Source: an uncultured Bacillota bacterium
GTDB lineage: Bacteria; Bacillota; Clostridia; Christensenellales; QAND01
Direction of reading: 5' to 3'
Length of the DNA stretch: 64,000 nucleotides
Assembly: GCA_905208455.1 (NCBI GenBank)
Contig: CAJLPK010000001.1
Coordinates: forward strand, 72 to 64,071
The number at the start of each line of letters is the position of its first letter. Position 1 is the stretch's first letter. The notes under the pieces are model-generated. The model had not been told where the DNA came from, searched no databases, and saw only the letters and a list, made by a program, of their open reading frames with translations. This document shows positions 16,814 through 23,509 of this stretch, piece by piece. Made by a program: the position numbers and the translations under genes.

Positions 16814-18949
16814 TCAGTGTAATAAGATACGATTGAGCCTTGCGCCTAAGCGGCTGAGGAGCTCATTGGAAATTGTACCAGCTTGTTCCGCCAATTCCGC
16901 AGCGGAGAGGGAGAGCGGCCCGGAAGCGCCGATGAGTACCGCTGTATCGCCGGCGGAGACCTGGGGGATGTCCGTAACATCCACGATGGTTTGATCCATG
17001 CATATTTTCCCCAGGATGGGCGCCTTTTGCCCATGGAGCAGCACATACCCGCGGCCGTCGGACAGGCTGCGCGGCAGCCCATCCGCATACCCGATGGCAA
17101 TCGTAGCGATTTTCATAGTACGGCCGGCGGTAAAGGAAAAACCATATCCAGCAGACTCCTCCGCATACAACGGCTTTACGGTGGCTACACGCGCCTTGAG
17201 GGATAAAACCGGCTGTAGCCGGCATGCGCAGGCATCGGTATCCGCTTGCGTGCTCAAAATACCGTATAGCGCGATACCAACGCGTGCATAGTCTCCCCCT
17301 AATTCAGGATAATTCAGCACGCCGTAGCTGGCCAGCAGATGGGCATAGGGACAGGGCAGGCCACGTTTTTTTAGTTCACGAAGCACAGACTGAAAGGCCA
17401 TGGACTGCACCTTGGTAAAGGCCTTGCAGCGGGGTGAGAGGGAATCATCGGCGGAAAGATGCGTGAAGATGCCGTCGATCTGCAGCTGTTTGCGGGCAAA
17501 CAGCGATGCGATCTGGTCTATATTTTCGCTGCGCTCTCCTAGACGATGCATGCCGGTATCTATTCCGATATGGACATGCAGCTTTTTTCCATACGCACAC
17601 AAGCTCTCTGCATATGCGCTGTCTATGACTGTTTGGGATAAACGGTAGCGGTGCAGGAGATAGGCTTGCGAAGGATGCGTGTAGCCGAGAATGAGAATTT
17701 CTCCAGAAATCCCGTTTTTTCGGAGCTCGATCCCCTCATGAAGGCTGGCTACACAGAAATGCCGGATGCCTAGGCGCTGCAATTCTTTACAGATGGGTAC
17801 AGAGCCATGCCCATAAGCATTGGCCTTGACAGCAGGCATCAGCTGACAGGAACGGGGAAGCCTGCTTTGCAGGAGCGCAAGATTATGGGCAAGGGCTTGG
17901 CTGTCCAATTCTATCCAGGCTCTTCCTTTTGAAAAGGAGGGCCGGGGCTGCGGCAGAACGAGAGTGATCAAATAAGCAGCACCCAGCGAAGCAAGGGAGA
18001 CAACGGCGAAATGGAGCAGGCTTTGCTCGACAAGCAAGGGAACCAAGTGCAGTGCCTTGGCAGATGCCCGGACCAATACGATAACGGCGGGGTGAAGGAG
18101 ATAGATCCAGGCGGCGATGTCGCGGATTCTATGACAGGCCGGACGTTGCCAGGACAGCACAAGCTGATAGAGAAAGACCATGACAGGAAGCAAGCAAAGA
18201 TACATGCTGTCGTGCCGCGGCCATCCAAGATGGCGCAACAGAAAGGCTTCGGCCGTCATAGCAAACAGCGAGAGACAAAGGCCTGCGGCGGATTTAGAAC
18301 GATTGACAGCAGGCATCGTGGTTCCGGGGGACAGCAAAGCGCCCAGGACAAGAAAGGCAGGCGCAAAAAACAATCCGTTTCGCGTATAGGAAAAGAGTTG
18401 GAACCCGCCTTGATAAAGGGCATCCAGCAGGGGGACAGACTGGGTTAAGCCATAGTAACTGTCGCCCAAAAGCCCGATTAGATACAGAATCAGAGAAATG
18501 GACAGAGAGCCGCCTAGAGAGAGCTTTCGGCTCATCAAGTAGACAAGGCAAAGGCCAATCAGGCAGGCAGGGAAATACCAAAGGTGGTAAAAGGTACCGT
18601 CGAACAGCAAGAGACGCAGAGCGCCGCCCAGGGTAAGCGCTTGATAGTGCCCGCCATACAGGCCAATGGGAAAATACAATACGATGGCGACGCCATAGAG
18701 CAGAGAGAGCCTTTTTAGAGATTTGACAAGGACGGGCCGGGCATCTCCCGATTGATAAAAGCGGGAAACGGTGAACTGTCCTGTGACCATAAAGAAAAAC
18801 GGGACAGCGACCCTGGCCAAAACACGGGTAAGAAAGAAATCTGCTTCTGTGCCAAAACAGGTAAGCGGCGAGGTATGGATTGCAATGACGAGAAAAGCGG
18901 CGGCCAATCGAAACGCATCAAGCCCCCCGTAATTCCGTTTTGCGTGCAT
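16814..18949 (-). CDS. vanT: VanT-type membrane-bound serine/alanine racemase
   Basis: N-terminal acyltransferase-3-like polytopic membrane domain. C-terminal PLP alanine-racemase domain (AVKANAYGHG). About 711 aa. Last gene of the van cluster. Confidence 0.85.
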   Translation of the reverse strand: MHAKRNYGGLDAFRLAAAFLVIAIHTSPLTCFGTEADFFLTRVLARVAVPFFFMVTGQFTVSRFYQSGDARPVLVKSLKRLSLLYGVAIVLYFPIGLYGGHYQALTLGGALRLLLFDGTFYHLWYFPACLIGLCLVYLMSRKLSLGGSLSISLILYLIGLLGDSYYGLTQSVPLLDALYQGGFQLFSYTRNGLFFAPAFLVLGALLSPGTTMPAVNRSKSAAGLCLSLFAMTAEAFLLRHLGWPRHDSMYLCLLPVMVFLYQLVLSWQRPACHRIRDIAAWIYLLHPAVIVLVRASAKALHLVPLLVEQSLLHFAVVSLASLGAAYLITLVLPQPRPSFSKGRAWIELDSQALAHNLALLQSRLPRSCQLMPAVKANAYGHGSVPICKELQRLGIRHFCVASLHEGIELRKNGISGEILILGYTHPSQAYLLHRYRLSQTVIDSAYAESLCAYGKKLHVHIGIDTGMHRLGERSENIDQIASLFARKQLQIDGIFTHLSADDSLSPRCKAFTKVQSMAFQSVLRELKKRGLPCPYAHLLASYGVLNYPELGGDYARVGIALYGILSTQADTDACACRLQPVLSLKARVATVKPLYAEESAGYGFSFTAGRTMKIATIAIGYADGLPRSLSDGRGYVLLHGQKAPILGKICMDQTIVDVTDIPQVSAGDTAVLIGASGPLSLSAAELAEQAGTISNELLSRLGARLNRILLH

Positions 18950-19706
18950 GGGTTTGCCTCCATTCCGTTAAGATAAATCCGTCAGTATTATTGCCGGAGA
19001 TGCTATATGGGGCGGCGCCGTCGATCTCCAGGCAGGTAGGGGTGCTTAGGTCTGCTTGCAGATAGGAGACCAGAACCTCCTGGCCGCCGCAAAGGATATG
19101 ATAAGCGGCCTGTCCATGGCGGTACTGCTTGATGAAGGCAAGATATTCTTCCAGCACTAGATGGTTCTGCTCCATGATCTTGGCATGCGGCACGCCGACA
19201 TAGCGAAAGTGCCATGGCTCGTGCGCGATGCCGGTAATGTGCTCTTTGCCTGCCGGATAGCGCTCTATAAACCCGTAGTCCGCTGCTTTGCGGCGGAAGG
19301 TTTGGCAAAGGCCGCTGTAAGGGAACTCTGGACGGATAAAATCAATATGAGCCTGTTTTTGCCCAAGGTCGATGGCGAGCCCGGTCTGGTGCTCGCTGTG
19401 GCCTGGCAGGGCCACGTATTTTTGGGTAAAGGCCAACCCGTTGTCCCGGATCGAATCGTCCCAGATCTGCTGCTGCTCAGCCTGCGCCCGCCAGCCGCTG
19501 ACAGGGACGATGTGCCGCCAGCCTTGGAAAGAATCCATCAAGCTGGAAAGAAGAACCGCGGCTCTGCGCTGCAGGCAAACGGAAGGATAGTGCTCCAGCA
19601 CAGGGACCAGGTGAGACTGGGGATCTGGGCGATAGCCGGCCTCAGCGTTGACGAGGATTAGGCTGCCGGTATGGATCTCATTTCGGGAGAGCAGAAGCGT
19701 TTTCAT
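18918..19706 (-). CDS. vanXY: VanXY-type D,D-dipeptidase/D,D-carboxypeptidase
   Basis: VanY/VanXY-like zinc peptidase motifs (SEHQTGLAIDL, EPWHFRY). Lies between the ligase and racemase genes, as in vanG and vanC operons. Confidence 0.8.
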   Translation of the reverse strand: MKTLLLSRNEIHTGSLILVNAEAGYRPDPQSHLVPVLEHYPSVCLQRRAAVLLSSLMDSFQGWRHIVPVSGWRAQAEQQQIWDDSIRDNGLAFTQKYVALPGHSEHQTGLAIDLGQKQAHIDFIRPEFPYSGLCQTFRRKAADYGFIERYPAGKEHITGIAHEPWHFRYVGVPHAKIMEQNHLVLEEYLAFIKQYRHGQAAYHILCGGQEVLVSYLQADLSTPTCLEIDGAAPYSISGNNTDGFILTEWRQTHARKTELRGA

Positions 19707-22818: not shown

Positions 22819-23509
22819 TGGTATAGCCCACCCCCCAAACCGTTTTGATGTATTTTGGCTTTCTGGCGGGCTCGTGCATCTTTTCCCGCAGACGAGCGAT
22901 GTGCGCCATCACGGTATTGTTGTTATCCAGATATTTTTCGCCCCAGACGGATTCAAACAGATCCTCGGAAGAAACGACCTGTCCCTTTCGTTCGCACAGA
23001 TGCCAAAGGATGTTAAACTCCAGCGGGGTCAGATTTAGCTCTTTTCCATTCAGCCGGCATTTGTGGCTGCTCTTGACTATATGAAGGCCGCGAATATCGA
23101 TTTCATCCAAAGCCCTTTCCAGCTCTGCAGGGGTGTTGTTGTACCGCGTATACCGGCGCAGCTGCGTTTTGACCCGCGCAATGAGCTCTAAGGGGTTAAA
23201 GGGCTTGGTGATATAGTCATCGGCGCCAAGGGTCAATCCTGTGATCTTATCCATATCCTCCACCTTAGCAGTAAGCATGATGATGGGAAACAGATGCTTT
23301 TCACGAATTTTTTGGCACAAGGCAAAGCCATCCATATCCGGCAGCATCACATCCAGGATCGCAAGGCTCAATGCCTGCGTTTCCACACAGGCAAGGGCTT
23401 CGGCTGCTGTATAAAATTTGTATACGCGGTAGCCCTCGTTTGCCAAATACACCTCTACCAAATCTGCGATGGATTTCTCGTCATCTACAATCAAAATATT
23501 TTCCGCCAT
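22811..23509 (-). CDS. vanR: VanR-type OmpR-family response regulator
   Basis: Receiver domain (ILIVDDE...D). Winged-helix C-terminus ends ...IKTVWGVGYTIE, which is VanR-like. Confidence 0.85.
   Translation of the reverse strand: MAENILIVDDEKSIADLVEVYLANEGYRVYKFYTAAEALACVETQALSLAILDVMLPDMDGFALCQKIREKHLFPIIMLTAKVEDMDKITGLTLGADDYITKPFNPLELIARVKTQLRRYTRYNNTPAELERALDEIDIRGLHIVKSSHKCRLNGKELNLTPLEFNILWHLCERKGQVVSSEDLFESVWGEKYLDNNNTVMAHIARLREKMHEPARKPKYIKTVWGVGYTIE

Follow-up and report, generated by a model that had tools for sequence, protein, structure and literature searches.

The vanG operon of Enterococcus faecalis BM4518/WCH9 has the gene order vanU-R-S-Y-W-G-XY-T, and its resistance promoter, with a TACAAT −10 element and a poor −35 element, is associated with a VanR_G footprint that extends from −100 to −43 and with boxes of the consensus (T/C)CGTANGAAA(T/A)T (PMC4405338). 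In Clostridioides difficile, the vanG_Cd cluster (vanR-S and vanG-XY-T) is chromosomal and species-wide in a spore-forming anaerobe and consists of two transcription units, of which vanRS is presumed to be bicistronic (PMC11326576). The cluster of Clostridium bolteae is incomplete and devoid of a racemase (PMC5073890). VanC-type clusters of Enterococcus gallinarum and Enterococcus casseliflavus (vanC-XY-T-R-S) are also chromosomal and species-fixed and combine a VanXY peptidase with a membrane-bound VanT. Domingo reportedly described a vanG-like cluster in a Ruminococcus species in 2007. The subject of the present analysis is a stretch of 64,000 nucleotides from an uncultured Bacillota bacterium (contig CAJLPK010000001.1, positions 72 to 64,071; hereafter the window), in which six adjacent genes, vanR, vanS, vanW, vanG, vanXY and vanT, very probably constitute a vanG-type operon for D-Ala-D-Ser glycopeptide resistance that is chromosomally fixed, looks functional and is organized in two transcription units.

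The window operon and that of E. faecalis share the core order R, S, W, G, XY, T, which amounts, as a first-pass annotation of the window had stated, to the E. faecalis operon without vanU and vanY. Proteins of E. faecalis are also the best solved-structure matches of the window ligase, peptidase and racemase, and the two operons display the same promoter logic, namely phased 12-bp VanR boxes at about −100 to −43, a TACAAT-type −10 and a poor −35. However, the window proteins are just 49–54% identical to their enterococcal counterparts, neither a vanU repressor nor vanY is present, and the operon resides in a Clostridia chromosome with no mobility genes in the window. The likeness to vanG_Cd, which is drawn from its description, encompasses the chromosomal location, the species-wide occurrence in a spore-forming anaerobe and the two transcription units proposed here; vanG_Cd has no vanW, whereas the window operon does. 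In contrast to that of C. bolteae, the window cluster is complete. It differs from VanC-type clusters in the presence of vanW and in its regulatory genes, which lie upstream of the resistance genes rather than downstream.

The six genes are co-oriented on the minus strand at positions 16814–23509, and all six open reading frames (ORFs) predicted by the first-pass annotation are found intact, with reference lengths that recur unchanged when genes are called independently on metagenome contigs from the same species. They encode VanR, an OmpR-family response regulator of 232 residues (22811–23509, minus strand), VanS, a membrane sensor histidine kinase of 373 residues with a TTG start codon (21697–22818, minus), the accessory protein VanW of 274 residues (20757–21581, minus), the ligase VanG of 349 residues (19703–20752, minus), VanXY, a putative D,D-dipeptidase/D,D-carboxypeptidase of 262 residues (18918–19706, minus), and VanT, a membrane-anchored serine racemase of 711 residues (16814–18949, minus). 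The TTG start codon of vanS lies inside the end of vanR (8-nt overlap), vanW and vanG are 4 nt apart, and the vanG/vanXY and vanXY/vanT pairs overlap by 4 and 32 nt, respectively, a tight packing that suggests translational coupling. The only real gap in the operon is the 115-nt spacer between vanS and vanW. A hairpin predicted by folding (16775–16804, minus; −19.9 kcal/mol) begins 10 nt past the vanT stop codon and is possibly a weak terminator.

Gene identities were assigned with NCBIfam curated models and their cut-offs, matches to solved structures and Pfam-type domains, the NCBIfam E-values for the genes ranging from 1e-77 to 1e-186. VanR belongs to the VanR-ABDEGLN family (398 bits, cut-off 350) and shows Response_reg and Trans_reg_C domains, with a predicted phospho-acceptor aspartate within LDVMLPD (residues 52–58). 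VanS is built of HisKA and HATPase_c domains with its phospho-acceptor His156 in the H-box. VanW matches the vanW-gen model (412 bits, cut-off 365) and the Pfam VanW domain. The motifs initially quoted for these three proteins are all present, IKTVWGVGYTIE at the C-terminus of VanR, DLIVYLAHDLKTPLTS in VanS and QPGETFSF at residue 88 of VanW.

The ligase had been described from the sequence as closely resembling VanG, a description that is borne out by both types of comparison. Its top match is the NCBIfam VanG model NF000091 (D_ala_D_ser_VanG; 535.2 bits, cut-off 495), compared with 346 bits for the D-Ala-D-Lac model, 365 bits at most for the Ddl models and 287–319 bits for the VanC, VanE, VanL and VanN models, which also sets it apart from the VanC-type enzymes. 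Among solved structures, the best is E. faecalis VanG (4FU0; 407 bits, 53.5% identity), far above VanA (288 bits) and Ddl (at most 238 bits), so that the enzyme does not group with the housekeeping ligases. Residues D242, F251 and R323 align with VanG Asp243, Phe252 and Arg324 and are invariant in 20 relatives; Meziane-Cherif et al. (2012) reportedly associated these VanG positions with the selection of D-Ser at subsite 2. The alternative that the ligase is a housekeeping D-Ala-D-Ala enzyme or a D-Ala-D-Lac enzyme of the VanA/B/D type, and the cluster not a D-Ser system, could draw on the fact that it also exceeds the cut-offs of two broad Ddl models (NF002528, 365 versus 262 bits; TIGR01205, 307 versus 246 bits), but this is expected of any member of the superfamily. 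Given the scores above, the serine racemase with its asparagine signature encoded in the same cluster (see below), and the absence of any match to the VanH-type 2-hydroxyacid dehydrogenase family among the six van genes or their neighbours, this alternative is effectively refuted.

The closest solved structure to VanXY is E. faecalis VanXY-G (4F78), which it matches over its full length (259 bits, 49.4% identity), and the zinc-binding and catalytic motifs SxHxxGxAxD and ExxH are found as SEHQTGLAID (residue 104) and EPWH (residue 163). VanT, as first proposed, is a fusion of an acyltransferase-3 domain (Acyl_transf_3, residues 9–329) with an alanine racemase (Ala_racemase_N/C, residues 349–708). 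It scores 539 bits with the NCBIfam model NF033131 (vanT-G-Cterm; cut-off 460), and its racemase domain aligns without gaps to VanT-G (4ECL; 371 bits, 51.4% identity), the top Alr reaching 219 bits. VanT has a catalytic pair, Lys376/Tyr603, and a specific Tyr-Ser-Thr-Asn tetrad in which Asn696 is the key residue (PMC4542195). In the window protein, K375 and Y602 occupy the positions of the catalytic pair, and Y542, S566, S694 and N695 those of the tetrad, so that the serine-racemase signature is present with its key asparagine and a single conservative Thr to Ser change (S694). Judged by sequence, the ligase, peptidase and racemase group with E. faecalis VanG, VanXY-G and VanT-G and not with housekeeping Ddl or Alr.

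Related loci from metagenomes, designated here by L numbers, vary in their racemase. The gene called next to the ligase in L043 (11822–12961) encodes a soluble racemase of 379 residues, and in L050, L056, L060, L101, L103, L106, L109 and others only the racemase part was found beside the ligase by tblastn, with no membrane domain matched. The fused membrane VanT is thus not universal in the vanG family.

By homology, VanT would convert L-Ser to D-Ser at the membrane, VanG would ligate D-Ala and D-Ser, and VanXY would hydrolyse D-Ala-D-Ala and trim precursors that end in D-Ala, while VanW would act as an accessory protein. The expected outcome is a pool of peptidoglycan precursors ending in D-Ala-D-Ser in place of D-Ala-D-Ala, to which vancomycin would bind more weakly.

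The regulatory DNA of the operon suggests how these genes might be controlled. An extended −10 element read from the sequence, TGCTACAAT (23573–23581, minus), is predicted to belong to the vanRS promoter and is conserved as ATATGCTACAAT or ATATGTTACAAT in two related lineages, L037 and L041. A consensus scan found no VanR-box match upstream of this promoter on its strand, which suggests that it is probably constitutive, by analogy with P_UG of E. faecalis. At the other end of vanS, two VanR-box-like direct repeats of 12 bp, TTGTCAGAAAAT (21715–21704, minus) and TTGTATGAATTT (21704–21693, minus; over the vanS stop codon), abut in 11-bp phase; counted from the predicted transcript start, they lie at −95 and −84. 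They are the sole abutting pair among the box-like matches in the window. A weaker third element, CCTTTTGAAATA (21664–21675, minus; 8/11 consensus positions), lies at about −55 to −44, and tentatively fits the E. faecalis footprint, which reaches −43. An exact 14-nt copy of the first box (GATTGTCAGAAAAT) also occurs, in inverted orientation, at the 5′ end of the LysR gene (16650–16663, plus strand); one match of this length is about the chance expectation in 16 kb. The LysR gene itself follows vanT in all three lineages examined.

The spacer downstream of the boxes contains a hairpin with a 15-bp stem and a T-tract (21598–21644, minus), which a terminator scan predicts to be the intrinsic terminator of vanRS. 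By alignment, the extended −10 element of the resistance promoter, TGGTACATT (21627–21635, minus), falls in the left arm and loop of this hairpin, and the predicted resistance transcript start (about 21620) is located inside it, in the loop or right arm. The hairpin stretch, from 21644 to 21608, ends about 27 nt ahead of the vanW start codon and so leaves no space for a promoter further downstream. The hairpin is kept in sister lineages, and a 70% relative that has no vanW carries changes that preserve its pairs.

Comparison with a further 80 vanG-type loci gathered from metagenomes, whose ligases are 50–66% identical, suggests that this arrangement is shared across the family. A strong hairpin occupies the same place in 39 of the 43 distinct spacers between vanS and the resistance genes, with folding energies of −16 to −38 kcal/mol and 12–28 pairs, counted permissively by passing over small bulges. 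Among the exceptions, the wrong stretch was extracted for L053/L054, only a 9-pair apical stem was obtained for L102, and no hairpin for L121. When 37 distinct segments are aligned, the sole invariant columns are TA...T; a TG set one base further upstream is almost invariant, and together they form an extended −10 element, TGnTAnnnT, located in the left arm and loop of the hairpin. The consensus structure predicted by RNAalifold is an 18-pair helix with compensatory double changes in 17 of the 18 pairs. The covariation score is 0.65, versus 0.29 for shuffled alignments and 0.14–0.20 with slid partners, and 88% of cells are paired, versus 69% after shuffling (none of 500 shuffles reaching the observed value) and 41–52% with slid partners; the percentage paired is inflated by the choice of segments through folding, whereas no constraint was placed on where the −10 element lies with respect to the apex. 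In 33 of the 37 loci, the stem runs into a T-tract.

The VanR boxes are also conserved in position. In an ungapped alignment of 40 related loci on the −10 element, a match to the published box begins at −95 in 31 loci and at −84 in 16, with further matches at −73/−72 and −62. The result is an array phased by 11 bp whose distance to the −10 element is constant. This array fits the E. faecalis footprint and its TACAAT-type −10. The vanS-vanG spacer of L058 contains the hairpin-promoter module twice in tandem, a second, similar copy lying about 55 nt downstream of the first.

These features can be assembled into a regulatory scheme in which vanR and vanS would be transcribed as a first unit from TGCTACAAT and would end at the strong intrinsic terminator in the 115-nt spacer. 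VanS would sense a glycopeptide or cell-wall stress and phosphorylate VanR, which would then bind the two 12-bp boxes that lie in phase at about −95 and −84, over the end of vanS, and activate a promoter that has a weak −35; the extended −10 of this promoter, TGGTACATT, is embedded in the left arm and loop of the terminator hairpin. Transcripts initiated in the loop or right arm (about 21620) would read on into vanW-vanG-vanXY-vanT; devoid of the left arm, they could not form the terminator and would escape termination, while read-through from vanRS would be blocked at the hairpin. That a promoter within the vanRS terminator operates in this way across the vanG family, stopping read-through and letting VanR-activated transcripts escape, is put forward tentatively, as less likely than not. 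No Rfam family covers the hairpin, and no account of such a layout was found in the searchable literature, which does not cover the primary papers on C. difficile vanG.

The hairpin could alternatively act as an attenuator in the 5′ leader of the resistance operon, or form a DNA palindrome to which a dimeric regulator binds, instead of terminating vanRS. Two features of the spacer point in this direction, a second promoter-like element, TTGAAA-N15-TAAAA(C/T), found directly upstream of the hairpin in the window clade, and the hairpin apex, which is a conserved inverted repeat, TG(G/A)TAC...GTATC(A/G). However, the upstream element is not conserved beyond the window clade, and for this reason its window form, TTGAAA-N15-TAAAAC, was discarded as the resistance promoter, unlike the −10 inside the hairpin; TGnTAnnnT, by comparison, is invariant in the 37 loci and keeps a fixed distance to the VanR boxes. 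In addition, the lower stem changes freely in sequence without loss of pairing (the permissive count giving stems of as many as 28 pairs), as expected of an RNA structure and not of a protein-binding site, and a T-tract comes after the stem in most of the 37 loci. An attenuator or operator function is therefore improbable.

Several points weigh against the reading of the locus as a functional, VanR-controlled resistance operon, or against parts of it. The VanS score of 398.7 bits with the NCBIfam HK_VanS_ACDEFG model is 1.3 bits under its cut-off of 400, with the next-best family 217 bits lower, at 181 bits. VanXY falls under both relevant cut-offs, with 259 versus 500 bits for VanXY-G and 211 versus 250 bits for generic vanXY. 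Each of the two abutting VanR boxes matches the E. faecalis consensus at just 9 of its 11 positions, and box-like 12-mers are not enriched over the window (52 found versus 51.9 expected), so that only the abutting pair is meaningful. The hairpin after vanT has no T-tract, which leaves the 3′ end of the operon uncertain. Finally, the equivalent cluster of C. difficile is inducible and enzymatically functional, yet confers little or no resistance unless derepressed (PMC11326576 and references therein), and the phenotype associated with the window operon is likely analogous.

This last point leads to a competing view, according to which the operon is a cryptic or physiological module of cell-wall remodelling, responding to envelope stress or D-Ser availability, that provides no useful vancomycin resistance in its host. 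In C. difficile, vanG is common and inducible but its role in resistance is disputed, the minimal inhibitory concentration rising only in vanS or vanR mutants (PMC11326576), and strains of C. bolteae and Clostridium clostridioforme with incomplete vanG homologues are susceptible to vancomycin (PMC5073890). The window cluster is species-fixed with no sign of recent selection-driven spread, and vanR is split in two in one sample. Set against this, the six genes are intact, and catalytic and specificity residues as well as regulatory DNA are conserved across lineages that are 77–91% identical, which indicates purifying selection on the full D-Ala-D-Ser pathway. The sequence gives nothing by which resistance could be told from another physiological role, and the cryptic module is a real possibility, a little short of an even chance.

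The split vanR occurs in L004 (7258–7942), which belongs to the same species; it consists of two ORFs of 130 and 99 residues, the other five genes being intact, and could be a natural knockout of the regulator or an assembly error.

The first-pass annotation had also proposed an old chromosomal locus rather than a recent mobile acquisition, a proposal that is supported by several lines of evidence. The exact ligase sequence is present on at least 22 contigs from many samples, with the same neighbours in all eight places shown. In L037/L038 and L040/L041, whose ligases are 81% and 84% identical to that of the window, the same R-S-W-G-XY-T operon is followed by the same LysR gene, and in L037 the flank on the vanR side is shared as well (NTP-transferase, DUF378, DUF2238, Na:Ala-symporter, desulfoferrodoxin, BioY and PfkB). 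The van proteins of the window and L037 are 77–91% identical and the flanking proteins 67–94%, a comparable divergence. No ORF of 100 or more residues in the 64-kb window matches integrase or transposase families, in agreement with the initial description of the flanks, family searches of the same 64 kb found no integrase, relaxase or conjugation genes of the sort that mark the integrative conjugative elements carrying vanG in Enterococcus and Streptococcus, and no direct or inverted repeats above chance bracket the cluster.

Base composition also conforms to the host. The guanine-plus-cytosine (GC) content of the cluster is 0.531, as against 0.511 ± 0.033 for 40 other genes, and the frequency of C at third codon positions is 0.357 in the van genes, 0.334 in the other minus-strand genes and 0.209 on the plus strand. 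This shared third-position bias suggests that the cluster has adopted the strand-specific mutational signature of the replicon, here that of the lagging strand, and argues against recent acquisition. A strand bias runs through the whole window, with third-position G and C frequencies of 0.375 and 0.209 in plus-strand genes and 0.238 and 0.334 in minus-strand genes, and is large enough to mimic a signal of horizontal transfer in naive codon-usage tests. Indeed, the apparent foreignness of the van block by raw or synonymous codon usage (4.55 versus 2.40 ± 0.43) was dismissed as a strand artefact, the distance of other minus-strand genes to plus-strand genes being 5.29 ± 0.18.

It does not follow that the cluster was never mobile, since it stands on the variable side of an integration hotspot. 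A tRNA-Leu(gag) gene identified by ARAGORN (13231–13315, plus strand) lies 3.5 kb from the end of vanT. In the sister lineage with a 91% identical PolA (L124), collinearity with the window (82.5% nucleotide identity over 6.3 kb) stops exactly at the last base of this tRNA (13315), and an intact tyrosine integrase gene (L124 15510–16673) follows 54 nt past it, then foreign-looking genes. The L037 contig ends inside the same tRNA, and adjoining it on the van side is an 87%-identical, frameshifted integrase pseudogene (L037 18594–19412), placed between the tRNA and the aldo-keto reductase (AKR)-flavodoxin-MerR-LysR-van segment. In sister lineages, tRNA-Leu(gag) serves as an integrase attachment site, and it marks a breakpoint of synteny. 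The van cluster might have been cargo of an ancient integrative element inserted at this tRNA, later fixed with loss of the integrase, which would make it an acquired island since immobilised and not an ancestral locus of the chromosome; its enzymatic mechanism would be the same. The proximity of the tRNA, the two integrase sequences, the low GC content next to the tRNA in the window (0.354 in the 13316–13527 spacer and 0.424 in the SRA gene that follows) and the occurrence of vanG-type clusters elsewhere in many unrelated contexts are in keeping with such an origin. On the other side, the window holds no copy of the tRNA 3′ end and no integrase remnant detectable by tblastn, and the L124 element carries different cargo, with no van genes within 7 kb, so that its integrase may be part of unrelated elements with only a transient presence at the tRNA. 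The host-like GC content and lagging-strand bias of the van genes, and a divergence from L037 similar to that of the flanks, also speak against it, and no clean empty site was found in the relatives examined. L124 was rejected as an empty site, as beyond the integrated element it continues into hrcA, the chromosome being rearranged there, and a genome scan anchored on the neighbouring M20 peptidase gene returned only 45–61% identical relatives, with no true van genes nearby and no empty site (near the relative in L025, only two-component matches of 27–29%). An origin as cargo is hence possible but somewhat doubtful, and current mobility of the cluster is not supported.

Between the tRNA and the operon, the window has two further traces of change. 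The low-GC SRA/ScoMcrA-like protein gene, part of a stretch (13316–14286, plus strand) that comes right after the tRNA, is present in this species, but L037 and L124 lack it at this position; it has the look of a small foreign insert. SRA/ScoMcrA-like domains occur in modification-dependent restriction enzymes. A 690-nt stretch in the flavodoxin-LysR interval (15108–15797), at first sight noncoding, contains remnants of a MerR/cupin regulator in several frames (15126–15702, minus); the regulator is intact in L037 (283 residues; tblastn E = 4e-18), and the window copy is a decayed pseudogene. On the opposite side of the operon, a gene pair for an M20 peptidase and a DcuC/AbgT-type carrier (23715–26568, plus strand) lies beside vanR. 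L037 and L038, although syntenic in other respects, lack this pair, which, from sequence comparison, denotes a two-gene insertion or deletion right at the vanRS promoter.

The remainder of the window is core chromosome, with genes for PolA, CoaE, ComEC, HolA, an EF-G-like GTPase, MutY, ProRS and MurJ, together with the sporulation genes gpr (Gpr) and spoIIP (SpoIIP). The two sporulation proteins and the relatives of PolA uphold, at the level of genes, the view of the host, which is known only from metagenome assemblies, as a spore-forming member of the Clostridia. PolA has relatives at 91% and at 80–82% identity, then none above 62%; the closest named ones are those of ‘Eubacteriales bacterium OttesenSCG-928-N14' (58%), of Clostridiales metagenome-assembled genomes (54%) and of Caldicoprobacter (48%), distances that point to a deep, uncultured lineage of Clostridia. 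Elsewhere, a thiamine pyrophosphate (TPP) riboswitch (58704–58803, minus; Rfam 63 bits, above the gathering score) precedes a ThiT/YuaJ-type thiamine transporter gene (57795–58628), which is an ordinary arrangement.

The operon is of a kind already well known and abundant in anaerobic Firmicutes, and its finding is correct but ordinary. Thousands of proteins share 62–70% identity with the ligase, and several bear the name ‘D-alanine--D-serine ligase VanG' in Clostridiales, Lachnospiraceae, Eubacterium or Acetatifactor; of the 600 pattern matches listed from metagenome contigs, 593 encode a relative of the ligase. Layouts of the form R-S-(W)-G-XY-T are common among vanG-type relatives, with vanW in a minority only, while outside the species no protein exceeds 84% identity to those of the window lineage. 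As a resistance gene cluster it adds little, and standard pipelines would annotate it correctly. Its proteins share about 50% identity (49–54%) with those of enterococci, so that the clinical vanG determinant does not derive from it, and the lack of mobility genes makes it a low-risk reservoir.

What the locus documents is a complete R-S-W-G-XY-T cluster, vertically maintained in a deep uncultured lineage of Clostridia beside a tRNA integration hotspot, and it plausibly offers a snapshot of how vanG clusters become domesticated. Its added value lies in this history and in the proposed family-wide placement of a promoter inside a terminator, which emerged from the comparison of about 40 related operons. 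If real and undescribed, the latter would be a compact and general way to silence a costly resistance pathway until induction. If confirmed, it would explain the tight off-state of vanG operons without inducer, and would provide a sequence signature for spotting VanR-controlled resistance promoters in metagenomes.

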